A stretch of DNA of 64,000 bases from a virus, in IMG/VR virus record IMGVR_UViG_3300031647_000001; one strand, 5' to 3'. The notes under the pieces are model-generated. The model did not search any database, was not told the origin of the DNA, and was given only the letters and a program-made list of their open reading frames with translations. Every line of letters begins with the position of its first letter. Position 1 is the first letter of the stretch. This document shows positions 9,355 to 42,575 of this stretch, in pieces. The position numbers and the translations under genes were made by a program.

Positions 9355-9801
9355 ATGAATAACTTAGAATCGATTCTAGCACTGTGGAAGAAAGATTGTA
9401 TTATAGATGAAATACAATTAGACGAAGCTTCCAGAGACTCAGCTAAATTGCACAGTAAATACTTAGATCTATATTCAGTCAATAGGCTGAAGCAAAAAGA
9501 TCTAGACCTCAAATACAAAATCATACTCAGAGATAAATTCAAACATTACGGTGGTAAACTGTCACAGCAAGAAATGGACCATAAAGGTTGGGAATACGAT
9601 CCCCTTGGTGGTCATACAGTATTGAAAGGTGACCTTGATAAATGGTATGATGCTGATGAGGTAATACAAGAACATCAGAAAAGAATGGCTGTACAAGACG
9701 AGGTAGTTTCTACTCTAAAAGAGATAATGGAAAATATTAAATGGCGACATCAGACAATTAAAAATATGATTGAATGGAGAAAGTTCACTAGTGGAATATA
9801 A
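9355..9801 (+). CDS. uvsY: Recombination mediator UvsY
   Basis: W.KD..ID...LD..S...AKLHSKYL and IKNMIEWRKF..G motifs. Confidence 0.9.
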   Translation: MNNLESILALWKKDCIIDEIQLDEASRDSAKLHSKYLDLYSVNRLKQKDLDLKYKIILRDKFKHYGGKLSQQEMDHKGWEYDPLGGHTVLKGDLDKWYDADEVIQEHQKRMAVQDEVVSTLKEIMENIKWRHQTIKNMIEWRKFTSGI

Positions 9802-10663
9802 AATCCATCAGTATCGTTTTGATAATTTTACAGGTCGAGAAGATATAATTCGTGAAGCTATGAATGAACTTGGCCACGAAGAAAGCGAAACTCCTGAATT
9901 GAATATATACAATCATTGTCATATATCAGAATTAGAAACTGAGAACAATATAATATTTAAACCCACTGGTCCTACTCATAAACATTTTGCATTAGATACT
10001 ATTGGTTATGCTAATAGTTCTTCTATTGCATTTAAAGAACCAGATTGGTTTCAGGTTCCTACGAAAGAAAATTTAGATTATATACAATCATTGATAAAAG
10101 CAAGATCTAATAAGTGGGATGATTCTATTCTACTAAAATGGAGAAAGGCAAAGAACGTAGCTGATGACCATATCTTAATTATAGGACAAGTTCCAACCGA
10201 CGAAACTGTAAATGGTTTTGGGTTTGGTGATCATTTTAAAAAGCTGCAGATGATTGTAAATAGTATTAAAGATAAAAACATAATAGTTAAGTTACATCCT
10301 TCTATGAAAATACGAGGAAGAACAAAAGATATAATCGATAAATGGATTCAAGATGGTATCGATGTAAGAACTGCTTTTGAATCCATACATGATTTTCTAC
10401 CTAAAACTAGAGTAGCTATATTAGAGAACAGCACAGCAGGTATAGAATGTATGATGCACGGAGTTCCTATTATATCCTATGGCTGGCCAGAGTATCATTG
10501 GCTTACTAAACAATTGCAATCACTAACTCAATTAGATGAAATAGTGACCGACTTAAGTTGGCACAGTGGTGTTAGTCAATCTATGTATATTAATTGGTAT
10601 ATAAATAAATATCTATGCAGTGATATAGCATCAACTAAAAATAGATTACAACAGATTATATAA
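9770..10663 (+). CDS. KpsS/KpsC-like (capsule polysaccharide synthesis family) GT-B protein
   Basis: ILIIGQVP.D, IIVKLHP and NSTAGIE.MMHG.P motifs typical of KpsS/KpsC-type transferases. Confidence 0.6.
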   Translation: MNGESSLVEYKIHQYRFDNFTGREDIIREAMNELGHEESETPELNIYNHCHISELETENNIIFKPTGPTHKHFALDTIGYANSSSIAFKEPDWFQVPTKENLDYIQSLIKARSNKWDDSILLKWRKAKNVADDHILIIGQVPTDETVNGFGFGDHFKKLQMIVNSIKDKNIIVKLHPSMKIRGRTKDIIDKWIQDGIDVRTAFESIHDFLPKTRVAILENSTAGIECMMHGVPIISYGWPEYHWLTKQLQSLTQLDEIVTDLSWHSGVSQSMYINWYINKYLCSDIASTKNRLQQII

Positions 10664-20049: not shown

Positions 20050-20358
20050 ATGAATAAAATATTATTAAAAACAAACTATAAATTTAATGAAGGAGCTCTT
20101 ATCAAAGAGTTCCAAAATTATGTAGACGGTACTTATGCAGGACATTATGGAGAAGGTGGATTTCAATCCTCTGAAGTCATAGTTGATCGTGGACATGGCC
20201 TAGGATTCTTCTTAGGAAATGTCGATAAGTACAACGCCAGGTACGGCAAAAAAGGTGGTCCTTCTGATCATCGCAAAGACTTAATGAAGGTGTTACATTA
20301 TGGTCTCTTGGCTCTATACGAGCACGACAGAATAAACACACCAACAGAGAAAAAATAA
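20050..20358 (+). CDS. DUF3310-like hypothetical protein
   Basis: HY.., GF.LGNVDKY..RYGKK.. DL.K..HY pattern. Confidence 0.65.
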   Translation: MNKILLKTNYKFNEGALIKEFQNYVDGTYAGHYGEGGFQSSEVIVDRGHGLGFFLGNVDKYNARYGKKGGPSDHRKDLMKVLHYGLLALYEHDRINTPTEKK

Positions 20359-21038
20359 TGAATATATCAAATGACACACTTGACGTGCTAAAAAACTTTG
20401 CTAGTATTAATCCCAATATGGTAATTAAACCTGGCCAACAACTGAAAACAATATCTGAAGCTAAGAACATTCTTGCCACCGCTGATATTATTGAAGACTT
20501 TCCGCAGGAGTTTGGAGTCTATGACTTAAACGAATTCTTGTCAGTCAACAATCTAGTAGCACCAGCAGAATTCGAATTTCAAGATAAATATGTTGATATG
20601 AAAAGCGAATCAGGTTCTAAAGTTAAGTACTACTTTTCTGAACCAGAAATTCTAACAACTCCACAAAAGGATATTAGTATGCCTGACTGTGAGTTTGGAA
20701 TTCAATTATCTGATGACCTACTCAATCAATTTAAAAAGGCAGCTGCAGTATTAGGTCATAGTGAACTAGTATTAACGGGTGACGATGGAGTTATTACAGC
20801 TTCGGTACTAGATGAAAAAGATTCCACAGCGAATACTTTCTCTCTACAAATCGATAGTAATAACGAATGTAAAAACAAATTCAGCTTTGTTATTAACATC
20901 AATAATCTAAAGCTATTAGCTGGTGATTACTATGTTAGTATCTCTTCTAAGCTTATAAGTAATTGGTCTAATACTTCACGTAATGGATCTATAAATTATT
21001 TTATTGCTTTAGAAAAAACAAGCGAATTTAATGTATAA
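20358..21038 (+). CDS. gp45: Sliding clamp
   Basis: LKNFASINPN, FGVYDLNEFL motifs; upstream of clamp loader. Confidence 0.93.
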   Translation: MNISNDTLDVLKNFASINPNMVIKPGQQLKTISEAKNILATADIIEDFPQEFGVYDLNEFLSVNNLVAPAEFEFQDKYVDMKSESGSKVKYYFSEPEILTTPQKDISMPDCEFGIQLSDDLLNQFKKAAAVLGHSELVLTGDDGVITASVLDEKDSTANTFSLQIDSNNECKNKFSFVININNLKLLAGDYYVSISSKLISNWSNTSRNGSINYFIALEKTSEFNV

Positions 21039-24780: not shown

Positions 24781-27303
24781 ATGAATTTTTACACCAGCGT
24801 TACTCGCTACGGCAATATGATCCTCTATCGTGGATATGAAAACGGTAAGAAAGTTAGTCACAAAATCAAATACGCTCCTACGTTATTTGTCTCTTCACCA
24901 AAAGGTGATTGGTCATCTCTCGACGGAGTTAAATGCGCACCCCTTAAATTCGACACCATGCGTGATGCGAAAAACTGGGTCGGCGAAAACAAAGAGGTTG
25001 CAGGTCGTAAGATCTTTGGCAACACTCGATACATATCAACATTCATTAACGAATACTTTCCAGGCACAATCAAATTCGATCGTAATCTTATTAACGTAAC
25101 TACTATCGATATTGAGGTTGCTTCTGATGATGGATTTCCAGAGCCAATAGATGCGGCAAAGGAAGTAACTGCAATTTGTGTTAAGAACAATATAGACAAT
25201 ACTTACTACGTATTTGGCGTTGGTGATTATGACGTTGAGAATTCTTTAATGAAAACTCATAGAGTTGTATATACCAAGTGCTTAAACGAAGTACATCTAC
25301 TTCAAATGTTCTTATCCCATTGGTCTACACCATCTCATACACCTGATGTTATAACTGGTTGGAATAGTAGATTCTTCGATATACCTTATCTTGTAAATAG
25401 AATTAATCGTTTACTTCCAGGAGAACAACGTAAGTTATCTCCATGGGGAATGGTTGACGAAAGAATAATTAATGTCATGCAACGTAAACAGCAAACATAC
25501 GAAATTGGTGGCATCGAACATCTTGATTACCTTGAACTATTTAAAAAGTTTGGTTACTCTTATGGTCCACAAGAAACATATCGTCTCGATCACATTGCTA
25601 ATGTTGTCCTAGGCGAAAAGAAACTATCGTATGAAGAACATGGAGATCTATTTAGTTTATACAAATTTGATTATCAAAAGTTTATTGATTATAATATCAA
25701 AGACGTTGAGCTAGTTGATCGTATAGAAGACAAGACAGGTCTTATTACTCTTGCTATGACTATGGGTTATAAGGGTGGCGTTAACTACGGTGATACATTT
25801 GGCACAACTGCTATATGGGATACAATCATCTATAGAGATCTATACGCAAATAAAATTGCTATACCATTCGCTGAAGAAAAGTTTAAAACACCATATCCTG
25901 GTGGCTATGTTAAAGAACCTCAAGTTGGATTACATCGTAATGTAGTTTCTTTTGATTTAAACTCTCTTTATCCATCACTTATTATGCAATATAATATGTC
26001 TCCAGAAACTATTATCAGTGGTAAAGTATCATCACACGTTACGGTAGACAATGTCTTATCTGGCTCTAGGCCAATGATTGAACCTAATGAATGTATCTCA
26101 GTTGGTGGCCAGCATTTTAATACAAGTAACAAAGGTGTGTTACCTAAAATAATAAACGACTTATACGAAGAACGTACAATCATAAAGCAAAGCATGCTTA
26201 AAGCACAAAAAGAATTACAGAAGGTAAACAAAAATGATAAACAAGAATTATACAGAATCGAAAGAGATATTGCGATTAACGAAAACCAGCAAATGTCGAT
26301 TAAAATTCTCCTTAATTCTCTTTATGGTGCTCTCGGTAATAAGTACTTCAGATTCTTCGACCAACGAATTGCAGAAGGAATCACTCTTACAGGACAGCTT
26401 ACAATTCGATGGGCTGAACAAGCAGTCAATGGTTATATCAATAAACTGCTTAACTCGCCAAATGGAAATAGTCCCAAGGATTACGTTATTGCAATTGACA
26501 CCGACAGTGTGTATGTTAGCTTAGACGAATTAGTTAAAAAGTTTAATCCAACAAACGTTACTGATTTCTTAGATTCAGTTTGCCAAGACAAGATCGTACC
26601 AATGCTTGCTAAGTCATATGAAAATCTATATGCTACCTTAGGTGGTATCGAAAACAAAATGGTTATGGATCGTGAAGTAATTGCTGATGTAGGAATATGG
26701 ACTGCTAAGAAACGTTACATTCTAAATGTACAAGACAATGAAGGTGTACGTTACGCTGAACCTAAACTTAAGATCATGGGAATCGAAGCTATTAAATCTT
26801 CTACTCCTATGCCATGTCGAGATGCTCTTAAAGCTATCTTCAAAGAAATAGTATCAGGCAGTGAAGCTCAAGTCCAAGCATCGATCGATCAATTTAAAAC
26901 ATATTTCAAATCACTAGCACCACACGAAATTGCATTCCCACGTGGCATTACTAAAATTGCAGCCTTTAAAGATCTACAAACGATCTATAAGAAGGGCACA
27001 CCAATTCATGCAAGAGGTGGGTTACTATATAATAAGCTATTGCTTGACTTATCTCTACAAAAGAAACATCAACCAATTGGCAACGGAGAAAAGATTAAGT
27101 TCGTATATCTTCGTACACCAAATAGTCTTCATGAAAATGTTATATCATTTCCTGAATACTTACCAGAAGAATTCGGATTGCATAAGTACGTTGATTATGA
27201 CATGCAATTCCAAAAGACTTTCTTAGATGCTATCGAACCAGTGCTCAATGCAATTGGTTGGTCATCCAAGGAGATAGCTACTTTAAATGATTTTTTTGAA
27301 TAA
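24781..27303 (+). CDS. gp43: Family B DNA polymerase
   Basis: Exo DIEV, SFDLNSLYPS, KILLNSLYGALG and AIDTDS motifs; no intein or intron seen. Confidence 0.98.
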   Translation: MNFYTSVTRYGNMILYRGYENGKKVSHKIKYAPTLFVSSPKGDWSSLDGVKCAPLKFDTMRDAKNWVGENKEVAGRKIFGNTRYISTFINEYFPGTIKFDRNLINVTTIDIEVASDDGFPEPIDAAKEVTAICVKNNIDNTYYVFGVGDYDVENSLMKTHRVVYTKCLNEVHLLQMFLSHWSTPSHTPDVITGWNSRFFDIPYLVNRINRLLPGEQRKLSPWGMVDERIINVMQRKQQTYEIGGIEHLDYLELFKKFGYSYGPQETYRLDHIANVVLGEKKLSYEEHGDLFSLYKFDYQKFIDYNIKDVELVDRIEDKTGLITLAMTMGYKGGVNYGDTFGTTAIWDTIIYRDLYANKIAIPFAEEKFKTPYPGGYVKEPQVGLHRNVVSFDLNSLYPSLIMQYNMSPETIISGKVSSHVTVDNVLSGSRPMIEPNECISVGGQHFNTSNKGVLPKIINDLYEERTIIKQSMLKAQKELQKVNKNDKQELYRIERDIAINENQQMSIKILLNSLYGALGNKYFRFFDQRIAEGITLTGQLTIRWAEQAVNGYINKLLNSPNGNSPKDYVIAIDTDSVYVSLDELVKKFNPTNVTDFLDSVCQDKIVPMLAKSYENLYATLGGIENKMVMDREVIADVGIWTAKKRYILNVQDNEGVRYAEPKLKIMGIEAIKSSTPMPCRDALKAIFKEIVSGSEAQVQASIDQFKTYFKSLAPHEIAFPRGITKIAAFKDLQTIYKKGTPIHARGGLLYNKLLLDLSLQKKHQPIGNGEKIKFVYLRTPNSLHENVISFPEYLPEEFGLHKYVDYDMQFQKTFLDAIEPVLNAIGWSSKEIATLNDFFE

Positions 27304-27357: not shown

Positions 27358-27660
27358 ATGAAAAATATAAAATTAGTCAGATTAACATCAGGTGAAGAAC
27401 TCATCGCAAACGTTGATCTAAACGGTATCGATACTGATACAATTATACTTAAGGATGCAATCGTTCTTATTCCAGCTGGAGAAGGTAAACTAGGCTTTAT
27501 GCCATTTATGCCTTATACAAAAGCCAGGGAAGGATTTGAAGTTGATTTGAAATTCGTTATGTTTATGGTTGACCCAGTAGAAGATCTAGTTAAACAACAT
27601 GCTGGCGCAACAAGTCCTATCGACTTATCTGCTTCTGCACCTTCTGGGATTATTACATAA
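27358..27660 (+). CDS. Conserved T4-like hypothetical protein (Sm-like fold)
   Basis: KLVRLTSGEELI motif. Confidence 0.7.
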   Translation: MKNIKLVRLTSGEELIANVDLNGIDTDTIILKDAIVLIPAGEGKLGFMPFMPYTKAREGFEVDLKFVMFMVDPVEDLVKQHAGATSPIDLSASAPSGIIT

Positions 27661-28064
27661 TGAGTAAGGATTGGGTAAAAGATATTCACGTTATGCAAGC
27701 TAAATATCTTACGCGACAATGGGTTGAAACTAATCCAGATAAACTCAAAGAATTCTTAGAATTTAGAGTTGATTTTCTTAAAGAAGAATTGATGGAAACT
27801 AAAAAAGCTACTACTGAAAACGATCCTGAAGAAATCGTTGATGGTCTTATCGACTTATGTGTAGTAGCAATTGGTACTCTTGATGCTTTTGGAGTAGATC
27901 CTTATAAAGCATGGGATGCAGTACTCGAAGCTAATATGAATAAAGAAGTTGGTAAAAAACCCTCAAGGCCTAACCCTTTGGGAGTGCCAGATTTAATTAA
28001 GCCAGAAGGCTGGGAAGCACCGTCACACAATGGAAACCATGGTAAGTTTAACAATATTCGATAA
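27660..28064 (+). CDS. MazG/PRA-PH-like all-alpha nucleoside triphosphate pyrophosphohydrolase
   Basis: EE..E...A......EIVDGLIDL motif, V..ANM.K, K.IKP.GW. Confidence 0.8.
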   Translation: MSKDWVKDIHVMQAKYLTRQWVETNPDKLKEFLEFRVDFLKEELMETKKATTENDPEEIVDGLIDLCVVAIGTLDAFGVDPYKAWDAVLEANMNKEVGKKPSRPNPLGVPDLIKPEGWEAPSHNGNHGKFNNIR

Positions 28065-30024: not shown

Positions 30025-30393
30025 ATGAAAGAAAGTTTAAAAGTTTTACAAGAGTGTGCTGAATTACAAGCTAGAAAATCTGATGATTACCAGAATCAGG
30101 AATCTAACGTTACTCAAGCAATGCATTATCGCAGAGGTGTAGATAGTATACACGATATTATAAACGGTAAAATGTTACGAGCACAATCGCTGCTCGAAGC
30201 AGGCCAACATGGTGACCCAAATTTTGAGTCCCTAGAAGATACCTACAAGGATATGATTAATTACGCATCCTTTGCAGTATCATTTATGCGTGGCAAAATG
30301 GAAGGTCAAGATCCTAACCGTGATTGCTTTAATAGACAAGCTAGACCTTTAGCAAGACCAAGTCACGAAACTGACGAGTGGGAAAGAACATGA
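30025..30393 (+). CDS. DUF1599 / nucleotide-modification-associated all-alpha protein
   Basis: RKSDDY ... ESLEDTYKDMINYA pattern. Confidence 0.7.
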   Translation: MKESLKVLQECAELQARKSDDYQNQESNVTQAMHYRRGVDSIHDIINGKMLRAQSLLEAGQHGDPNFESLEDTYKDMINYASFAVSFMRGKMEGQDPNRDCFNRQARPLARPSHETDEWERT

Positions 30394-31049
30394 TGGAAAT
30401 ACCTGCAGTAAGACAATACTTTAAAACGCAATTAGCAATGGAACGATTTACTACTGATAGAAATGGTAGTAAAACAATTGAAATGATTGGTGCTTCATTT
30501 ATAGCAGATGAACCAGCTATATTTGGTAAACCTAATCAAGAATATATAGATGCTGAATTAGAATGGTACGAAAGCGAATCAACTAATATCACTGATATCT
30601 ATCCTGAAGGAGATAAAGAACCACCAAAGGCTTGGCAAGAAACAGCAAATGTTCATGGTGAAATTAATTCCAACTATGGTCATCTAATATACTCTGAAAA
30701 ATATTATAATCAATATGCTCAAGTAGTAGAAGAACTAGATCAAAATCCTGATAGCCGTAGAGCTGCTATGATTTATACACGTCCTAGCATTTGGCTAGAA
30801 TACAATGATCAGTTTAAAAACGATTTCATATGTACCAATGCAGTAACATATTATATTAGAGACGAGAAGCTACACAGTGTAGTTCAAATGAGATCTAATG
30901 ATGTTATCTTTGGTTATAGAAATGATTACGCTTGGCAAAAATATGTTCTAGACAAATTATCATATGATCTATATGTTCAATCTGGTGACATCCATTGGCA
31001 AGTACAGAACTTACATGTATACGAGAGGCATTTCGATTTAGTAAAATGA
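30390..31049 (+). CDS. gp42: dCMP hydroxymethylase-like enzyme (thymidylate synthase superfamily, T4 gp42 type)
   Basis: KTIEMIGASFIADEP.IFG, ELEWY, GEINSNYG, QNPDSRR..MIYTRPS, DFICTN and RSNDVIFGYRNDYAWQKYVLDKL closely follow T4 gp42 as recalled; the dCMP-specifying Asp is in RND. Confidence 0.92.
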   Translation: MMEIPAVRQYFKTQLAMERFTTDRNGSKTIEMIGASFIADEPAIFGKPNQEYIDAELEWYESESTNITDIYPEGDKEPPKAWQETANVHGEINSNYGHLIYSEKYYNQYAQVVEELDQNPDSRRAAMIYTRPSIWLEYNDQFKNDFICTNAVTYYIRDEKLHSVVQMRSNDVIFGYRNDYAWQKYVLDKLSYDLYVQSGDIHWQVQNLHVYERHFDLVK

Positions 31050-31498
31050 ATAATAATAAATGGTATCCAAGATATTTAGAACTAGCCAAGCTTGTAGCTA
31101 CATGGAGTAAAGATCCAAGTACTCAAGTTGGAGCTGTTGCAGTAGGAAATAAAGGTCAAATATTAGCTCAAGGTTATAACGGATATCCTCGAGGATTTGA
31201 CGATACTAACTATGAAAATAAAGAACATAAGTATGCACGTATAGTCCATGCTGAAATGAATTGTATATACAACGCTTCATGGAATGGAGTATCTCTAAAT
31301 GAAGCTACATTGTTTGTTTGGGGATTACCAGTTTGTCATGAATGCGCTAAAGCTATTATCCAAGTTGGAATAAAGACCGTTGTAATACCACTAACCACGC
31401 AAGAGATTCCGCAAAAATGGGATGACTCTTTTAGATTAACTACTAAATTTTTCGTTGATGCAGGCGTAAAAGTAGAGATACACGATATAAAATTATGA
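31046..31498 (+). CDS. cd: dCMP deaminase
   Basis: WSKDPSTQVGA, GYNG, HAEMN and PVCHEC zinc-binding motifs; ATGA overlap with gp42. Confidence 0.93.
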   Translation: MNNNKWYPRYLELAKLVATWSKDPSTQVGAVAVGNKGQILAQGYNGYPRGFDDTNYENKEHKYARIVHAEMNCIYNASWNGVSLNEATLFVWGLPVCHECAKAIIQVGIKTVVIPLTTQEIPQKWDDSFRLTTKFFVDAGVKVEIHDIKL

Positions 31499-31788
31499 AA
31501 AAATTTGATGTAAAAGAAATAGAACACAGCAAAAGAATATTTAAATCTGCTACTCCAAAATACACACTTGATTGGTATGTAAAATGGGTGGCATCGGTAT
31601 TCGTATTAGCTGCAATGTCAATACGAGGTATTGATGGTTGGCAACTATATGATTTACTCCTGTCAGCTACGGGTGTAGGTCTATGGACAGTAGTTGCACT
31701 GCTTTGGAAAGATAGAGCATTGATTCTATTAAACTCGGTAGGATTTATACTACTAATAAGAAACTTAATAACGTATATATCCTCATGA
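31495..31788 (+). CDS. Small multi-pass membrane protein
   Basis: DWYVKWVAS...WKDRALILLN, three hydrophobic segments. Confidence 0.7.
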   Translation: MKKFDVKEIEHSKRIFKSATPKYTLDWYVKWVASVFVLAAMSIRGIDGWQLYDLLLSATGVGLWTVVALLWKDRALILLNSVGFILLIRNLITYISS

Positions 31789-32231
31789 GATTAGATTATA
31801 AGAACGTCGGAAAGATAGGAATAACATTCTCATGTTTCGATTTATTGCATGCTGGTCATGTCACAATGCTCGAAGAAGCAAAAAGACACTGTGACTATTT
31901 AATAGTAGGATTACAGACAGATCCAAGCATAGACCGACCAGAAAAAAATAAGCCAATCCAATCTATTGTAGAAAGACAAATACAATTAGCTGGACTTAAA
32001 TACGTAGATGAGATAGTAACATACCAAACAGAAAATGATATTATGGATTTACTATTAACATTACCTATAAGTGTCAGAGTAGTTGGCGAAGATTACAAGG
32101 GAAAAGAATTCACTGGTAAAGAGCTCTGTATCCAACAGAAAATTAAAATCATATATAATAGTAGGAAGCACAGTTTTAGTACTTCAACATTGAGAGAAAG
32201 GTTACATGAGAATAGCAATAACAGGAAGTAA
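31785..32231 (+). CDS. TagD-like cytidylyltransferase (HIGH family)
   Basis: FSCFDLLHAGH, LIVGLQTD, KNKP...ER, G.DY, RKHSFSTS motifs. Confidence 0.88.
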   Translation: MRLDYKNVGKIGITFSCFDLLHAGHVTMLEEAKRHCDYLIVGLQTDPSIDRPEKNKPIQSIVERQIQLAGLKYVDEIVTYQTENDIMDLLLTLPISVRVVGEDYKGKEFTGKELCIQQKIKIIYNSRKHSFSTSTLRERLHENSNNRK

Positions 32232-33051
32232 CGGTTACATAGGCAAACGCTTAATAGAAAAATTAAAAGGTAGCGGTCACGATATCTTAGAAATAGATCT
32301 TATTAGGCAGCAAGATTATTACAATCGTGAAGTTAATATTAAAGGTCCAAAGGTATCTTGGAATATCACTACTACACCTTATCATGGTGGATTGCCATGG
32401 TGTTGGATACAATACGATTGTGTAGTCCATTTAGCAGCTTTAGTTAAAGTTGGTGAAAGCGTTGAAAAGCCATGGGAATACTATAATACTAATATCAATG
32501 GTACTCGAAACGTTATCGAAGCATTTCCAGGAGCTAAATTTATTTTTGCTTCAACAGGTGCAGCTTTTGATCCAACGTCTCCTTATGCAAAATCGAAAGT
32601 AGTTGCAGAAGATATAGTAAGAAGTCTATGTGATGACTATACAGTATTTAGATTCTTTAATGTCGGGGGTGGAAAACCAAATAACCCTGAAGGATTATAT
32701 GCCGCTACGCAAAACGCAATTAAATCTGGTGAGTTTACTATTTGGGGAGATGATTATAATACAAGCGATGGAACATGTGTAAGAGATTACGTACACGTCG
32801 ATGATATATGTAATGCAATTATCCGTGCAATCGATAAGCCTGGAAGCTGGGCTGATTACGAACCATTAGGATCAGGACAATCATACACAGTTAAACAATA
32901 CATGGAAACGTTTCTAAAAGTAAACGGTCCATTGTTCGAGCTCAAATACGGACCTCGTAGACCTGGAGATAACGAGTATTCTGCAGTTCCATTTAAGTCA
33001 AAATTTATAACACCAGAAAAAACATTAGAAGATATAGTGAGGATAACATAA
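32206..33051 (+). CDS. galE: GalE-type NAD-dependent UDP-sugar 4-epimerase
   Basis: TGSNGYIG, HLAA..VGES..KP, YAKSK, DGTCVRDYVHV. Confidence 0.85.
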   Translation: MRIAITGSNGYIGKRLIEKLKGSGHDILEIDLIRQQDYYNREVNIKGPKVSWNITTTPYHGGLPWCWIQYDCVVHLAALVKVGESVEKPWEYYNTNINGTRNVIEAFPGAKFIFASTGAAFDPTSPYAKSKVVAEDIVRSLCDDYTVFRFFNVGGGKPNNPEGLYAATQNAIKSGEFTIWGDDYNTSDGTCVRDYVHVDDICNAIIRAIDKPGSWADYEPLGSGQSYTVKQYMETFLKVNGPLFELKYGPRRPGDNEYSAVPFKSKFITPEKTLEDIVRIT

Positions 33052-34160
33052 TGAAAATATTAATAACCGGAATGAATAAAAATCAAACAACAAAAGATTT
33101 CTATTTAAGACAACAGCTAAAGGTAGTACCATCACACTATTCATTGATTCGATGTTTAGAAGATATGGGACACGAGGTAGAGCAAAGATTAGTAAAGATC
33201 GGAGAAGATCTAGGAGATTATGACAAAGTAATCTGTTTCCTAGCATCACCTAGACAAGCTTTACAATTAGCGTTCTATAATGGACTATGGGCTATTCACG
33301 CTACCGCAAAGCATAACCTTATTCTTGCAATGGATGATTGGCAGACAGAAGATATCTTTAAAGGTATTCAATCATGTACAGATAAGGAATCACTCTTAAA
33401 AGAATTTACCATCGGACAAAACAAGATGTGTGACCCTGATATGTCATATGAACTATTAGAACCACATGCTGAAACTTTGTTAGATGCTGTTAAATTCATT
33501 GGAGAGAAAAGAAGGCCAATGTTGTTATCAGTGTTTATGGGTGGTGACATGTCTAAGCTCATTAATTATCCTGAAGATTTATTAGTAGGATATGATCCTA
33601 ATCCATATCATAGGAATCGAACTCCTGGAAATAGAGGCGATATCGAAATAGAAGATATGGAATTCATGGAGCAATCTCTGATGCCAAGTATAGAAGAAGA
33701 TACTATTGGACCCGATGAGAAAGCTATGGTCTTTAACTTCGCTTCACTTGTACAAGGTAAAACAAAACGTTGGTTAAAGCAGCAAAACGTTAGTGAGTGG
33801 GATATCGAATTCTTTGGATCTAGAAAAGAAAAACAAAGACGATTACTCGAAAGTGATATGTGTAAAGTATATGCAGAACAATGGGGAAGTTTAATGCCAG
33901 GTTACCCTCATGCAGGTTCAGGTTGGTGGAGAGCTAGACCTTATCAAGTAGCTGATGGTGGTTCTATTCTAATTGGTGAATACGACGAAATGTATTTGCT
34001 ATATGGAGACGAATACCTTGCAGGCTTAACTGCTCAAAACCTAGAAGAAATGAATATAGAAGAACTAACTTCTGTAGCAGAACGCCAAAAAGATGCGCTA
34101 TATAGTAGGCATCCATTGGATAAAAGAAAGCAACAGAAAGAACTAGGTGTTATTCTGTGA
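33051..34160 (+). CDS. GT-B glycosyltransferase, putative DNA (hydroxy/hydroxymethyl-cytosine) glycosyltransferase
   Basis: N-terminal MKILITGMNK strand, DIEFFG (as in T4 BGT NIEFFG), W.R.RPYQ...GSILIG C-domain pattern; operon context. Confidence 0.7.
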   Translation: MKILITGMNKNQTTKDFYLRQQLKVVPSHYSLIRCLEDMGHEVEQRLVKIGEDLGDYDKVICFLASPRQALQLAFYNGLWAIHATAKHNLILAMDDWQTEDIFKGIQSCTDKESLLKEFTIGQNKMCDPDMSYELLEPHAETLLDAVKFIGEKRRPMLLSVFMGGDMSKLINYPEDLLVGYDPNPYHRNRTPGNRGDIEIEDMEFMEQSLMPSIEEDTIGPDEKAMVFNFASLVQGKTKRWLKQQNVSEWDIEFFGSRKEKQRRLLESDMCKVYAEQWGSLMPGYPHAGSGWWRARPYQVADGGSILIGEYDEMYLLYGDEYLAGLTAQNLEEMNIEELTSVAERQKDALYSRHPLDKRKQQKELGVIL

Positions 34161-35161
34161 AGATATTAGTAGTTGGCGCTGGATTTGCTGGTGCAGTTAT
34201 AGCAAGGGAATGCGCAGAACAAGGACACACGATAGATGTAATAGATCAAAGAGATCACATTGGTGGTAATGCTTATGACTACACTGATGAAAATGGAATA
34301 CGAATTCATAAATATGGTCCACATCTCTTTCATACAAACAACGTTGATGTAGTGAAGTGGCTATCTAGATTTACTGAATGGACTCAGTATCAGCATAAAG
34401 TTAAAGCTCAATTGGATGATGGACGTTATGTTACTCTACCAGTTAATAAAGAAACAAAAGAAATAGTGGGTGAAGAGAATGTACTAGATATTTTCTTTAG
34501 ACCTTACACTTATAAGATGTGGGGTAAAACATTAGATGAATTAAATCCTGCAATAATAAACAGAGTTCCAATACGAGATGATGATAATGAGTTGTATTTT
34601 CCTAATGACAAGTATCAGCAAATGCCGAAAGAAGGTTATACTAAGTTGTTTGAGAATATCTTTAGTCATACTAATATTAACGTATGTACTTCAGTAGCTT
34701 TCAATAAATTAATGGAAGAGGATTATGATTATATCTTTAACTCGATGCCTATAGATGAGTACTTTGATAATTGCCATGGTGAATTGCCATATAGATCTAT
34801 CAAGTTTCATAACGTAACACTAAATCAAACTAAAGTTTTACCAACAGGAACAGTTAATTTTACACATGATGGTCCATTTACAAGAGTAACCGAATGGAAG
34901 AATATAGCAAATCACGGAGTAAACGACTATAAAACAGTGCTTACTTACGAAGAGCCATGTGATTATAAGGATAATAATATGGAAAGATACTATCCAGTTC
35001 AAGACGTAGAAGGAACTAATAGAGATACGTATAAGAAATACAAAGATATGGTAGACGAATCTAAAATGAAATTTATCGGAAGGTGCGGTCAATATGTTTA
35101 TATCGATATGCACATGGCAGTTGGCGGAGCATTAGCAGTAGCAAGGAAATTTTTAAAATGA
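34157..35161 (+). CDS. glf: UDP-galactopyranose mutase
   Basis: VGAGFAG FAD motif, HIGGNAYD, IHKYGPHLFHT, YTYKMWG, RYYP, GRCG.Y.Y.DM. Confidence 0.95.
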   Translation: MKILVVGAGFAGAVIARECAEQGHTIDVIDQRDHIGGNAYDYTDENGIRIHKYGPHLFHTNNVDVVKWLSRFTEWTQYQHKVKAQLDDGRYVTLPVNKETKEIVGEENVLDIFFRPYTYKMWGKTLDELNPAIINRVPIRDDDNELYFPNDKYQQMPKEGYTKLFENIFSHTNINVCTSVAFNKLMEEDYDYIFNSMPIDEYFDNCHGELPYRSIKFHNVTLNQTKVLPTGTVNFTHDGPFTRVTEWKNIANHGVNDYKTVLTYEEPCDYKDNNMERYYPVQDVEGTNRDTYKKYKDMVDESKMKFIGRCGQYVYIDMHMAVGGALAVARKFLK

Positions 35162-36342
35162 ATTACGCATCAATAGTACCCTTAATTGGCGGGTCAACAA
35201 TAGCCATGCAAAACGTATTTGGTAAAAGACCAGAATATATGATGACATACGATGGGTTTCAAGATAATGAAAAGCATCTTATTAATTATTATAATAATGA
35301 AGTACCATATTATAATCTATCAGAAGGACCTAAACCAACTCATAACGTTGATGTAGTAAATACAGTATGTCCTTGTGCAGGATTAAGTTCTCTATCGGTT
35401 GCATCTAGTTCTACTAATGAAGCTAATGACTGGATGGTCACTTCTGCAGAATACGTACTAAGTACAGTTAAACCTAAAGTATTCTGGGGAGAGAATGCAC
35501 CGAGGCTAGCATCTAAAATGGGTGAGCCCGTAGTAGAAAAATTAAGAAGGATTGCTTATAGACATGGATATACATTTTCATTGCTACAAACTAAGTCAAT
35601 ACTCCATGGGCTAAGCCAAACTAGAGATCGATCATTCTATTTCTTTTGGAAAGATAGTAAAGTTCCTCTCTTTGATTATATTCATGAAGCACCAGGAAAC
35701 ATAGCAGAAGATATTAGATCAATATCCTTAGATAGTAGTGATCCAATGTCAGCTTTAACTAATGAAAAAACACCCTCAGAAAATCCATTTTATCGATATG
35801 TATTAGAAGCAATCGAAGGTGGTATTACTCATAAAGAATTCAGTTCCAAGCTTACTAAATCATGTAACGTTATGGACTATATAGAAGAACATACGAATTA
35901 TAAAGAAGTTTCAGTTTGGATGGAAGAGCATGGATTTGAAAAAGAATCTAAGAGATGCTTGACAATGTATCACAAATTAAAATCAGGTGGCAATATTATG
36001 AGAAAGAATATTGAAGTACCATGTGATAAAATTGGTGCATTTGTTGGTCATCTACCAACTATGTTAACTCATCCAGATGAAGACAGATTCTTGACTGTAA
36101 GGGAAGCCTTATACATTATGAGAATGCCAAGTGATTTTGAATTGCTTGACCCTAAAAGAACACTAAACCATATATGTCAAAACGTTCCGGTTACAACTGC
36201 AGAGTTTGCAGCTAAACAGATCTATAAATATTTAAATGGACAGATTGATTTAGTAGACACAGATTTTCTTATTCAAGATAATCGAAAAAAAGCCATAAAA
36301 TATCAAAAAAACAGTGTACAACTCGACAGTTTTATGGTATAA
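35158..36342 (+). CDS. C5-cytosine DNA methyltransferase-like protein with atypical motif I
   Basis: Catalytic PC (CPCAGLS), ENAP (motif VI), QTRDR (motif VIII), R.LTVRE and QNVP (motif X); motif I reads VPLIGG; start by ATGA overlap at 35158. Confidence 0.8.
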   Translation: MNYASIVPLIGGSTIAMQNVFGKRPEYMMTYDGFQDNEKHLINYYNNEVPYYNLSEGPKPTHNVDVVNTVCPCAGLSSLSVASSSTNEANDWMVTSAEYVLSTVKPKVFWGENAPRLASKMGEPVVEKLRRIAYRHGYTFSLLQTKSILHGLSQTRDRSFYFFWKDSKVPLFDYIHEAPGNIAEDIRSISLDSSDPMSALTNEKTPSENPFYRYVLEAIEGGITHKEFSSKLTKSCNVMDYIEEHTNYKEVSVWMEEHGFEKESKRCLTMYHKLKSGGNIMRKNIEVPCDKIGAFVGHLPTMLTHPDEDRFLTVREALYIMRMPSDFELLDPKRTLNHICQNVPVTTAEFAAKQIYKYLNGQIDLVDTDFLIQDNRKKAIKYQKNSVQLDSFMV

Positions 36343-36366: not shown

Positions 36367-36876
36367 ATGTTAAATACAAACGAAAAATTTCCAGGATTTA
36401 TGCTTAACGGCGTAAACTCGGAAAATCAAATTGTTCAAGTTAAATCAGAAGATCTTTCTGGTTCTTGGGCAGTCATTTACTTCTACCCAAAAGACTTTAC
36501 GTTCATTTGTCCAACTGAAATTTCAGGTATGGATAAACTATGCGAAGAGGCTATTGTAATGGGAGTATCTGGTGATAATGAATATTGTAAGCAAGCTTGG
36601 AAAAAATCCAATCCGCTTATAAAAGACATTACACATACACTGGCAGCCGATCCCGGTTTGTCATTAGCAGGAAGATGTGATATCATTAATATGATTGATC
36701 TTGTAGCAAATAGAGCAACGTTCATTATCGACCCTGAAGGTATAATCCAACATTCATCAATGAATGCAATGGATACTGGAAGGAACGTAGATGTACTATT
36801 ACAAACTCTCGAGGCACTTAAAGCAGGCGGTTTAACCGGATGTGATTGGGTTGCAGGAGAGCAGTTCGTTGCCTAG
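36367..36876 (+). CDS. ahpC: 2-Cys peroxiredoxin (AhpC/TSA)
   Basis: [27 protein letters not shown]. Confidence 0.95.
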
Positions 36877-37120
36877 TGTAGATCTAAGACCGCGTAAACC
36901 AAATCCTAAGGATAAAAGACCTCAGAAGGAAATGCCCTTTGATGTTGGTTTACGCAAATTTAAGAAAGCTTGTGAGAGAGCTGGAATCGTGCAGGAGGTT
37001 CGTAGGAAAGAATTCTATGAAAAGCCAACTGCTAAAAGAAAGAGAAAAAAGGCTGAAGCAATTGCTCGTACTCGCAAGCAAGAAAGAGCAGCAAAATTAA
37101 GACCGAACAGGTGGAGATAA
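36869..37120 (+). CDS. rpsU: Ribosomal protein bS21 with N-terminal extension
   Basis: [32 protein letters not shown] matches S21; likely TTG start after AGGAG. Confidence 0.92.
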
Positions 37121-39883: not shown

Positions 39884-40060
39884 ATGTTAAATTCAATAAA
39901 AAACTGGGTAAAAAATAGATTGCCTGAAAGAACTTCACATGACGGAGTATTGCTTATTGTGATATGCGGTAGTGTGTTGCTTTTTGGTGGTGTAGCTAAA
40001 CTACTCGCATGGGTAGGAATAGGTTACGGTATCTATACTTTAGTCAGAGAGGAAGCGTAA
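39884..40060 (+). CDS. Small membrane protein
   Basis: ERTS.DG..LI pattern with two hydrophobic helices. Confidence 0.6.
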   Translation: MLNSIKNWVKNRLPERTSHDGVLLIVICGSVLLFGGVAKLLAWVGIGYGIYTLVREEA

Positions 40061-40677
40061 TGAGTTATTTAAAATCATTAGGAATGGCAACATTATTAAT
40101 TCCATCATTTTCATTTGCAGACGTAAGTGGTAGTGTAGGATATAGTAGTGATTACATGTGGAGAGGGGCAACTCAATCCAATGGCCAATCTAGCTTTAAC
40201 GCCAATCTTGAAGTAGAATCCAACGGTTTCTTTGCAGGTGCATGGACTGGACAAGTTGACTTCGGAGACGATGCATCTTGGGAAAGGAATCTATATTTAG
40301 GATATGGCTTTAGCGTTAGTGATAACTTAAGCGTCAAAGCGGGTATTAATCAAATACGTTATGACGGTGGTGGAAGAGGCGTGAAAGAAGAAGGATTTGT
40401 TAAAGTAAATTACAAAAACTTAAACGTCATGTATTTTCTAGACACCGAAAATGAAGATGATTACGCGCATATCAGCTATGACATATCGGACTTTGTTCCA
40501 GTAGTAGATGTAGCTCTTGGTTATGGTTACCATGACGAAGAAAATGATTTCTCGACAATGACCGTATCATATGATCTAAACGATGAATTCGAACTTAGCA
40601 TGATGGTAATGCTTGACATGGCTTTCGAAAATCAGTTTAGTGATTCTGTATCTCTCGGTTTACATTATAATTTTTAA
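40060..40677 (+). CDS. TorF/Gcw_chp-like outer-membrane beta-barrel (putative porin)
   Basis: Signal peptide ending SFSFA, SDYMWRG.TQS motif, amphipathic strands, C-terminal YNF. Confidence 0.8.
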   Translation: MSYLKSLGMATLLIPSFSFADVSGSVGYSSDYMWRGATQSNGQSSFNANLEVESNGFFAGAWTGQVDFGDDASWERNLYLGYGFSVSDNLSVKAGINQIRYDGGGRGVKEEGFVKVNYKNLNVMYFLDTENEDDYAHISYDISDFVPVVDVALGYGYHDEENDFSTMTVSYDLNDEFELSMMVMLDMAFENQFSDSVSLGLHYNF

Positions 40678-41848: not shown

Positions 41849-42135
41849 TGAATACTCCCGGAATCCAATACGATATGTTTAGTGATACGTTTACTGCAAG
41901 GTTCGAGCACATAGCAACAACCTACCCAGTATACTTATATCTAAATGAAAATGAGTTTAAGCTCATGACAGTCAAAGAGAACATGGATGCTAAGTTCGAC
42001 CAAGCATTACAGTCACTTTGGTTAAGAGGCATTATCCCTCAAACTGGCGGTTCAGTTAATGAAGATATTGCCGACTTTCAAGAGAATCACTTCCTTGAAG
42101 GTGTATACAAAAATGAACAATTAAGGAGTCACTAA
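41848..42135 (+). CDS. Hypothetical protein
   Basis: Coupled ORF (TAATG overlap). Confidence 0.55.
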   Translation: MNTPGIQYDMFSDTFTARFEHIATTYPVYLYLNENEFKLMTVKENMDAKFDQALQSLWLRGIIPQTGGSVNEDIADFQENHFLEGVYKNEQLRSH

Positions 42136-42575
42136 TGACACAAGCACAATTAAAGCAAACGCAATCAGCTATCCTAGTTGACATGGATGGAACGTTGTGC
42201 CATAGAGAAGGATTCACCGATAGAGATCCGTATGATTACACTAGATCTGGTGAAGATGGATTAGACCCAACGGTTGCAGATATCGTTCAAAGATTTTCTG
42301 CTGACCATACTATTATCATCTTTACAGCAAGACCTGCTGCAGCTGAATTCATTTGCAGAACATGGTTGAAAGAACATGGTGTTACATTCGACGCTATCTT
42401 CCTCAGGAAAGACAAAGACTTTAGAGAAGATTCAATCGTTAAATGGGAAATGTTTCAAGAACATGTTGAGCCATTCTACAAAGTTGCATTCGTCTTAGAT
42501 GACAGGCAACAAGTTGTAGACATGTGGAGAGCAAACGGATTAAAGACATTACAGGTTGCGTCCGGTGATTTTTAA
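42135..42575 (+). CDS. HAD phosphatase resembling the T4 PseT/Pnk 3'-phosphatase domain (no kinase domain)
   Basis: DMDGT, TARP, R..KD.R.D..VK and DDRQQVVDMWR motifs. Confidence 0.85.
   Translation: MTQAQLKQTQSAILVDMDGTLCHREGFTDRDPYDYTRSGEDGLDPTVADIVQRFSADHTIIIFTARPAAAEFICRTWLKEHGVTFDAIFLRKDKDFREDSIVKWEMFQEHVEPFYKVAFVLDDRQQVVDMWRANGLKTLQVASGDF

Follow-up and report, generated by a model that had tools for sequence, protein, structure and literature searches.

A gene at positions 35158–36342 (+ strand) of the DNA stretch analyzed here (the window: 64,000 nucleotides of IMG/VR record IMGVR_UViG_3300031647_000001) encodes a protein with the fold of a DNA cytosine-C5 methyltransferase (MTase), which is referred to as the MTase-like protein. 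The residues that activate cytosine are retained, the pocket that holds S-adenosylmethionine (SAM) in canonical enzymes is rebuilt, and the gene travels with a T4-type dCMP hydroxymethylase. The gene is read here as a replication-coupled cytosine-C5 enzyme of a phage 5-hydroxymethylcytosine (5hmC, or hmC where a module or pathway is named) module, which would perform non-canonical C5 chemistry on nascent phage DNA. Judged from the sequence and from structure prediction, this reading is given a probability of roughly one half.

The window covers most of a 77-kb record, which is about 43% complete. The source of the record is an uncultured T4-like marine myovirus, whose DNA polymerase shows 53% identity to that of 'Phage C48C1' and about 46% identity to those of cyanomyoviruses. 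The window also encodes gp55, gp45, gp44/62, RegA, UvsX, gp41, and ThyX.

Catalytic motifs and cofactor pocket

The MTase-like protein matched the Pfam family PF00145 with 54 bits (cut-off 22), where the match spans only positions 27–324 of the hidden Markov model (HMM), and motifs I and II lie outside it. The AlphaFold2 (AF2) model, built on 106 family sequences, has a predicted local distance difference test (pLDDT) score of 95.7. When this model was searched with Foldseek, the top matches (E-values down to 4.5e-13) were the ternary complexes of M.HhaI (TMt 0.70), and the next best were CmoX, which is the DNA cytosine C5-carboxymethyltransferase of Synechococcus phage S-B43 (PDB 8YF3; Nat Commun 2025, PMC12783734), DNMT1, and M.HaeIII. 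The open reading frame (ORF) encodes a real two-domain protein of the C5-MTase fold. The gene and its motifs are located as follows.

35158..36342, +: gene of C5-MTase fold, PLIGG/QN phage subfamily, 394 aa (PF00145, AF2, Foldseek, homologs)
35176..35193, +: motif I, VPLIGG (residues 7–12), replacing FxGxGG (aligned by hhalign to FAGIGG of Dcm, and to F25-AGGGG of CmoX)
35239..35259, +: end of strand beta2 and the following loop, MMTYDGF (residues 28–34), the canonical site of the ribose-binding Glu (AF2, conservation)
35368..35388, +: motif IV, CPCAGLS, with catalytic Cys73 (PC is residues 72–73) and Ala74 at the position of HhaI Gln82 (hhalign, conservation)
35491..35502, +: motif VI, ENAP (residues 112–115), with Glu112 equivalent to HhaI Glu119 (conservation)
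35617..35631, +: motif VIII, QTRDR (residues 154–158) (conservation)
36175..36189, +: motif X, CQNVP, with Gln341 at the position of HhaI Asn304 and CmoX Arg350 (register against M.HaeIII and CmoX)

One homology search gave 2665 homologs at E ≤ 1e-3, which occur abundantly in ocean viromes (from Tara, JGI, and ENA), and a full HMMER search of 1.84 billion cluster representatives gave 249 clusters at 50% identity with E ≤ 1e-30. Conservation was tabulated over 127 full-length cluster representatives and about 125 homologs from fetched loci at 30–90% identity. Cys73 is present in 126 of the 127 representatives and Ala74 in 106 of them. Glu112, Arg156, and Arg158 are invariant, and N113, A114, P115, and Q154 are conserved to at least 90%. 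Motif IX (RE/PxDF) and the VP of motif X are likewise retained, and motifs VIII and IX are separated, as in C5-MTases, by a variable region, which is largely helical in the AF2 model. As aligned, the protein keeps all residues expected to serve the flipping of cytosine and the attack of Cys73 on C6, namely PC, ENAP, QxRxR, and RE.

The cofactor side of the active site departs from the canonical one at several positions. In the residue-for-residue alignment of motif I, the adenine-stacking Phe is replaced by Val or Ile and the first Gly by Leu, and P8, L9, G11, and G12 are conserved to at least 95% in both sets of homologs. In class I methyltransferases, a ribose-binding acid is located at the end of strand beta2 (E40 in HhaI and E47 in CmoX). 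In the AF2 model, beta2 comprises residues 28–30, and the family has S or T at position 30 (T30 here), Y, F, or W at 31, a variable residue at 32, A, P, or G at 33, and F at 34. No conserved acid was found at the beta2 end in the three registers tried, in which position 30, 31, or 33 is placed opposite the Glu, the register itself being uncertain.

Motif IV reads PCA, not PCQ, and the canonical GN(A/S)VP of motif X is (C/A)QNVP in the family, where C340 occupies the Gly position and Q341, present in 124 of the 127 representatives, occupies that of Asn304. For the register of motif X, the VPV..A anchor was used in the comparison with M.HaeIII, and an hhalign alignment in that with CmoX. In M.HhaI, Gln82 and Asn304 line the transferred group, and the N304A substitution opens the pocket for larger groups (PMC3526304). 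Residues 1 to 40–60, which include motifs I–III, fall out of the Pfam, PDB-profile, and hhalign local alignments to canonical profiles.

The recurrent signature of the family consists of P8-L9-(I/V)10-G11-G12, S/T30, an aromatic residue at 31, F34, N37-(D/E)38, D65, (C/P)PCA(G/A)LS, ENAP, QxRxR, RE...MGxPxDF, and (C/A)QNVP. The original prediction had described the PC, ENAP, and QTRDR motifs as intact and motif I as VPLIGG; both observations were confirmed in the 394-aa ORF, and the latter holds family-wide. Its suggestion of a cofactor site altered from that of canonical C5-MTases is also borne out, as the alteration is strictly conserved, and three deviations were found beyond motif I, which are the lack of the beta2 acid, PCA for PCQ, and CQNVP for GN(A/S)VP. 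A local, pseudogene-like decay of motif I is ruled out by the identical residues in all homologs at 30–90% identity. The pattern of conservation indicates that the catalytic half of the active site was kept and that the cofactor half was rebuilt and then held by selection. From the same residues, we infer that SAM binding was lost in this family.

The altered motif marks a large, apparently phage-only subfamily. A scan of 185,579 species genomes of GTDB gave 18 hits, all of them on contigs of metagenome-assembled genomes (MAGs) and none in an isolate genome, and these contigs come from taxonomically incoherent bins. T4-like core genes or gp42 were found in the fetched flanks of 14 of the 18 hits and of 13 of the 14 closer ones, and the nearest Atlas clusters of the protein are 100% viruses. 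An origin or context in bacterial restriction-modification is ruled out, as the gene occurs in no isolate genome of the GTDB scan. A literature search found no description of a PLIGG/QN subfamily of C5-MTase-like proteins.

Some long metagenome members on short contigs (P0182, P0160, P0173, and P0180; 598–1462 aa) keep all signature residues, among them PLIGG, the S/T, PCA, and QNVP. P0182 is fused to a CXXC zinc finger, and the other fusions carry C2H2-like fingers or long K/E-rich low-complexity tails. By analogy, the CXXC and zinc-finger architecture looks like that of eukaryotic DNMTs or of a giant-virus type.

Putative clamp tail and hydroxymethylcytosine module

The T4 clients of the gp45 sliding clamp include gp43, gp55, and gp33, of which gp43 and gp55 bind it via their C-terminal tails. 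A tail of this kind was found at the end of the MTase-like protein, and the features concerned are listed below.

36316..36339, +: C-terminal tail of the MTase-like protein, VQLDSFMV, candidate docking peptide for the sliding clamp (tail comparisons)
27277..27300, +: C-terminal tail of gp43 DNA polymerase, ATLNDFFE, the model for the MTase-like tail (tail comparisons)
20358..21038, +: gp45-type sliding clamp, presumed docking partner (phrog_223, E=1.3e-68)

The tail pattern was defined as L-x-x-[FLM]-[FLMY] with no more than two residues after it. Of the window's 94 plus-strand ORFs with a length of 60 aa or more, only gp55 (LELFMA), gp43 (TLNDFFE), and the MTase-like protein (QLDSFMV) fit this pattern; PHROGs confirmed the assignments of gp55, gp45, and gp44/62. 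The polymerase and the MTase-like protein both carry this tail type in each of the 37 loci where the C-terminus of gp43 and the MTase-like gene are present together, homologs at 30–34% identity included. The tail is present in 51 of 65 full-length homologs and in 63 of 670 background ORFs, where the sequences are related, so that the difference is not a formal probability. It is the part of the AF2 model with the lowest confidence (pLDDT 66–73), as expected of a flexible peptide. This similarity suggests that the tail docks the enzyme on the gp45 clamp. If docked there, the enzyme would therefore see newly replicated phage DNA, which argues against host DNA as the target.

The MTase-like gene is the last gene of a same-strand block that starts with a MazG/PRA-PH pyrophosphatase at 27660. 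The order of the block is MazG/PRA-PH, DUF1599, ThyA homolog, dCMP deaminase, cytidylyltransferase-like, NAD epimerase, a 369-aa protein, UDP-galactopyranose mutase, and MTase-like, as given by the following features.

30378..31049, +: T4-type dCMP hydroxymethylase, gp42 homolog (identity, PDB match, signature)
27660..28064, +: MazG/PRA-PH-type nucleotide pyrophosphohydrolase, candidate dCTPase (PF01503, phrog_671)
30025..30393, +: DUF1599 ('nucleotide modification associated domain 1') protein (PF07659)
30995..31498, +: dCMP deaminase (PF00383, phrog_174)
31785..35161, +: variable sugar block of cytidylyltransferase-like, NAD epimerase, 369-aa protein, and UDP-galactopyranose mutase genes (Pfam)

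Over its full length, the gp42 homolog shares 55% identity with T-even gp42, and it matches the T4 dCMP hydroxymethylase structures (PDB 1B49) with E=7.5e-73. According to a 2026 study, thymidylate synthases, 5hm-dCMP synthases, and 5-hydroxy-dCMP synthases are told apart by three positions, where a dCMP hydroxymethylase has Asp at EcThyA N177, an acidic residue at L143, and Asp169 kept, not Asn (PMC13326640). The gp42 homolog has Asp at the L143 and N177 positions and retains Asp169 (motifs DFICTN and MRSNDVIFGYRND). By this signature the ThyA homolog is assigned as a T4-type hydroxymethylase, and an RB69-type 5-hydroxy-dCMP synthase is ruled out by the retained Asp169. Plain cytosine should be scarce in a phage carrying this enzyme. 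This agrees with the original prediction, which had expected a gp42-type substitution to leave little plain cytosine; the hydroxymethylase is real and co-travels with the MTase-like gene.

The MazG/PRA-PH gene lies 5' of gp42 in most related loci, and we infer that its product acts as the dCTPase of the module. The DUF1599 gene is also syntenic with gp42 in most loci. The sugar block is swapped for other genes in related loci, and its 369-aa protein gave no sequence match in Pfam or PDB. In the MetaGPA study (eLife 2021, supplementary table 2), the families Thymidylat_synt, dCMP_cyt_deam_1, PRA-PH, Thy1, and CTP_transf_like are enriched on modified-cytosine contigs, and DNA_methylase is not among the enriched families; the enriched families match genes of the present module. 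In one related cassette, a serine hydroxymethyltransferase gene is located within the hmC genes (L095 8657–9802, +; PF00464, 501 bits), whose product would feed methylene-tetrahydrofolate to the dCMP hydroxymethylase.

The pairing of the two genes was followed in other genomes. With the MTase-like protein as the seed, 69 loci were retrieved from IMG/VR, and every locus with enough upstream flank contains the hydroxymethylase. The usual order is gp42, mostly followed by dCMP deaminase, then one to six variable genes and the MTase-like gene, and the minimal form is gp42, one gene, and the MTase-like gene. In the IMG/VR and GTDB scans together, a ThyA homolog lies within 10 kb in 30 of the 32 loci whose flank is 7 kb or longer, and all 38 ThyA-family neighbors checked carry the T4-type signature.

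The pairing is also found in unrelated genome architectures, which makes a stronger argument than the synteny among T4-like phages. A gp42-type gene lies 5 kb from the MTase-like homolog (29% identity) of Pseudoalteromonas phage vB_Psh_XG4 and 7 kb from that of a 425-kb contig (31% identity), and the sole ThyA-family gene of a goat-gut MAG with an MTase-like homolog is of the gp42 type. An MTase-like homolog (33% identity) is likewise encoded by TIM5-like cyanophages, near a more divergent ThyA homolog with Asp at the N177 position; the annotation of these phages includes a DNA alpha-glucosyltransferase. In Cyanophage S-TIM61, the annotated 'ThyA' (L072 5769–6605, −) is located 3 kb from the MTase-like gene and has Asp at EcThyA N177, Cys at L143, and the retained Asp169. 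Judged from these residues, it is probably dCMP-specific, and its product may be methyl or hydroxymethyl.

In the reverse direction, a scan seeded with gp42 gave 34 loci spanning gp42 to UvsX, and the MTase-like gene is present in 27 of them. Gene content between gp42 and the MTase-like gene varies greatly from locus to locus, so the function of the latter is tied to hmC and not to one sugar. A specific functional link to the galactofuranose genes is ruled out, because the sugar genes vary while the MTase-like gene stays. The link to the sugar pathway that the original prediction had implied was not upheld, and its place is taken by a link to the hmC genes.

For the MTase-like gene itself, the ATG at 35158 is assigned as the start. 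It overlaps, in ATGA, the stop codon of the UDP-galactopyranose mutase gene on its 5' side and is preceded at about 10 nt by a putative ribosome-binding site, AAGGAAA. The homologs, thousands of which start at the residue equivalent to MNYAS with 100% coverage, give no support to a longer form starting at the GTG at 35083. Downstream, an AhpC/TSA peroxiredoxin (36367–36876, +) is inserted between the MTase-like gene and uvsX; it is found only in the closest relatives (L003, L071, and L152) and is missing from most other loci. The ribosomal protein bS21 (36842–37120, +; PF01165, 61.7 bits, residues 29–77) lies between the peroxiredoxin and uvsX, and its true start is probably an internal ATG near 36930. 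Auxiliary genes elsewhere in the window encode a Gcw_chp-family protein (40009–40677, +; PF09694), a PNKP-type HAD phosphatase (42135–42575, +; PF25109), and a Capsule_synth-like protein that adjoins uvsW (9770–10663, +; PF05159).

Proposed reaction and alternative explanations

In the proposed reaction, the tail would dock the enzyme on the gp45 clamp and bring it to newly replicated phage DNA, as DNMT1 is tethered by PCNA. A cytosine derivative would be flipped out, and Cys73 would attack C6 of 5hmC or of a stray unmodified cytosine at a short target sequence. The product would be other than simple SAM-driven 5-methylcytosine (5mC). In one option, the 5hmC adduct would expel the hydroxyl and capture another nucleophile; in another, a one-carbon unit would be installed from a non-SAM donor. 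Formaldehyde could also be released from the 5hmC adduct. A pocket that lacks the adenosine contacts and has a conserved polar lining (Q341 and N342) could hold a different partner. The wider claim, that the family is the first natural enzyme class in which the C5-MTase fold works without SAM and that it makes an undescribed base in thousands of marine phages, is put forward tentatively and is itself doubtful.

Several observations weigh against the proposed reaction. The MTase-like gene is truly absent from seven of the 34 complete gp42-to-UvsX modules, as given by an HMM search of those seven. The one clear exception to the hydroxymethylase pairing is a homolog of 34% identity (L165), whose contig encodes only a canonical thymidylate synthase. 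Many of the loci belong to related T4-like phages, so that part of the co-location is inherited synteny. No conserved gene for an alternative donor or nucleophile was found in the module. The tail motif is short, and about 17% of the most diverse family representatives fit the strict pattern; the tail may follow the clamp of each lineage. In the pocket, G11-G12, the aromatic Y31, and the N37-D/E38 pair could still build a SAM site, and, by analogy, the CXXC fusions would modestly favor plain cytosine (unmodified CpG) as the substrate.

The exceptional contig L165 is an 85-kb MAG contig binned as Rhodoferax, which carries ENAS and QSVP variants and a thymidylate synthase with ALMPCH...PFNIA. 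In the seven modules without the MTase-like gene (L078, L083, L085, L088, L095, L114, and L143), the gene before uvsX encodes a 317–342-aa protein, which precedes the MTase-like gene elsewhere, and Pfam scans of the slot genes in these loci gave nothing informative. The seven modules rule out an obligate component. The MTase-like gene depends on the hmC context, and the hmC and sugar pathway does not depend on the MTase-like gene; because one in five otherwise complete modules lacks the gene, it is regarded as an optional add-on and not as a core step.

The strongest alternative is an ordinary SAM-dependent 5mC methyltransferase with a divergent but working SAM site, which would be tethered to the clamp and would methylate stray cytosines or a specific class of sites. 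It is a serious possibility, although its chance is put clearly below even. Such an enzyme would have the full fold with all catalytic motifs, the final two glycines of motif I, and an aromatic residue following beta2, all of which are kept here; its clamp tethering would parallel that of DNMT1 with PCNA, the CXXC and C2H2-like finger fusions look like eukaryotic DNMTs, and SAM is available in any host, while no other cofactor gene is conserved nearby. However, the same changes are seen throughout the family at five positions where M.HhaI and CmoX contact SAM or the methyl group, and one such change alone, Q82A, lowers methylation by M.HhaI about 16-fold (PMC3526304). Motifs I–III do not align to canonical profiles. 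Given the hydroxymethylase and the MazG-type pyrophosphatase, the substrate cytosine should be rare, and methylating the rare stray cytosine offers no clear gain.

The protein might also be directed at host DNA containing plain cytosine, as a roadblock, a cross-linker, or a SAM-free site-specific deaminase, or it might be a non-catalytic reader of cytosine; only phages without plain cytosine in their own DNA could afford such a factor. The dependence in one direction would fit, as the gene is seldom found without dCMP hydroxymethylase and the reverse does not hold, and T4 has the C-DNA-specific shut-off factors Alc, EndoII, and EndoIV. The chemistry is conceivable too, as C5-MTases free of SAM exchange the C5 hydrogen and destabilize C5 substituents (PMC11347137). 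This explanation is nevertheless improbable: the polymerase-like clamp tail points to replicating phage DNA, the strictly conserved rebuilt pocket suggests a bound ligand, and the invariant Cys, Glu, and Arg would be superfluous in a pure reader.

A CmoX-like transferase, which would place a larger group on C5 from carboxy-SAM (the cofactor the original prediction had suggested) or another SAM derivative, is hardly to be expected, although a Gln occupies the position of HhaI N304 and CmoX R350, the Gln82 position has a small residue (as in CmoX, where it is Ser), and CmoX is among the best-matching solved structures, part of the variable region included, because both SPPC and the Arg are missing, a neutral Gln cannot pair with a carboxylate as Arg or Lys does, and the adenosine contacts F25, E47, and D69 have no counterparts. 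The search for CmoA (TIGR00740) and for the class-I methyltransferase fold (PF13649) gave no match in the 77-kb record, which is about 43% complete, and neither was found among the cassette genes of related loci that were scanned or labelled, many of which have no assignment. By its defining residues, its adenosine contacts, and the lack of CmoA in the record, the carboxy-SAM reading is rejected.

Comparison with known systems

To our knowledge, phages hypermodify cytosine by hydroxymethylation or hydroxylation at the nucleotide level, by DNA methylation followed by TET oxidation, or by CmoX carboxymethylation. The MTase-like family fits none of these routes, and it unites an intact cytosine-activating center, a conserved non-canonical pocket, and dependence on hmC genes. 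Cultured carriers exist in the TIM5-like cyanophages and Pseudoalteromonas phage vB_Psh_XG4. If the proposed chemistry is true, it would provide a new DNA base or a new derivatization of 5hmC, which would be useful for 5hmC labelling. If the enzyme is a plain methyltransferase, the family would redefine the residues needed for SAM binding in the C5-MTase fold and would show replication-coupled methylation in phage.

The type II C5-MTases (M.HhaI, M.HaeIII, and E. coli Dcm) share with the MTase-like protein the fold, the Pro-Cys, the ENx Glu, and QxRxR. The MTase-like protein differs from them in PLIGG, PCA, (C/A)Q, the missing beta2 Glu, and the polymerase-like tail, and its gene sits in hmC modules, not beside restriction genes.

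CmoX is likewise a phage-encoded protein of the C5-MTase fold, with a changed HhaI Asn304 position and a small residue after the catalytic Cys. In hhalign, the two proteins align with a probability of 97.5 over residues 60–357, where P72, C73, and A74 correspond to P97, C98, and S99; the residue numbers of CmoX were verified against the S-B43 sequence. The defining features of CmoX are SPPC, Arg350, which binds the carboxymethyl group, and a neighboring CmoA; CmoX retains the SAM adenosine contacts F25, E47, F48, and D69 and travels with an amide ligase as well (PMC12783734). Where CmoX has F25, E47, SPPC, and Arg350, the MTase-like protein has V7, T30, CPCA, and Gln341, and where CmoX travels with CmoA, the MTase-like gene travels with dCMP hydroxymethylase and sugar genes.

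The phage pathway of methyltransferase, TET (5mYOX), and glycosyltransferase is similar in that a gene of the C5-MTase family is clustered with glycosylation genes and 5hmC serves as the handle (PMC8256090; bioRxiv 2023.12.21.572611). There, a TET-like dioxygenase converts 5mC to 5hmC once the DNA has been replicated, whereas here 5hmC arises before replication via the T4-type dCMP hydroxymethylase. No match to the Tet_JBP domain (PF12851) was found in the record, which is incomplete, and the methyltransferase–TET pathway is rejected on this ground.

The T-even glucosyl-hmC pathway (gp56, gp42, gp1, and alpha- and beta-glucosyltransferases) is similar in having gp42, dCMP deaminase, a MazG-type pyrophosphatase, and sugar-transfer genes in one block. 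Compared with that pathway, marine, TIM5-like, and other lineages have the MTase-like enzyme in addition, and T-even phages are not among the tblastn matches of the MTase-like protein.

We know of no natural enzyme that has been described as dedicated to SAM-free reactions of 5hmC. The dehydroxymethylation of 5hmC is known as a laboratory side reaction of SAM-dependent C5-MTases, in which covalent complexes with 5hmC DNA are formed and the hydroxymethyl group is released as formaldehyde (NAR 2024, PMC11347137). The same covalent chemistry between Cys and C6 could explain a SAM-free role of the present MTase-like enzyme on 5hmC.

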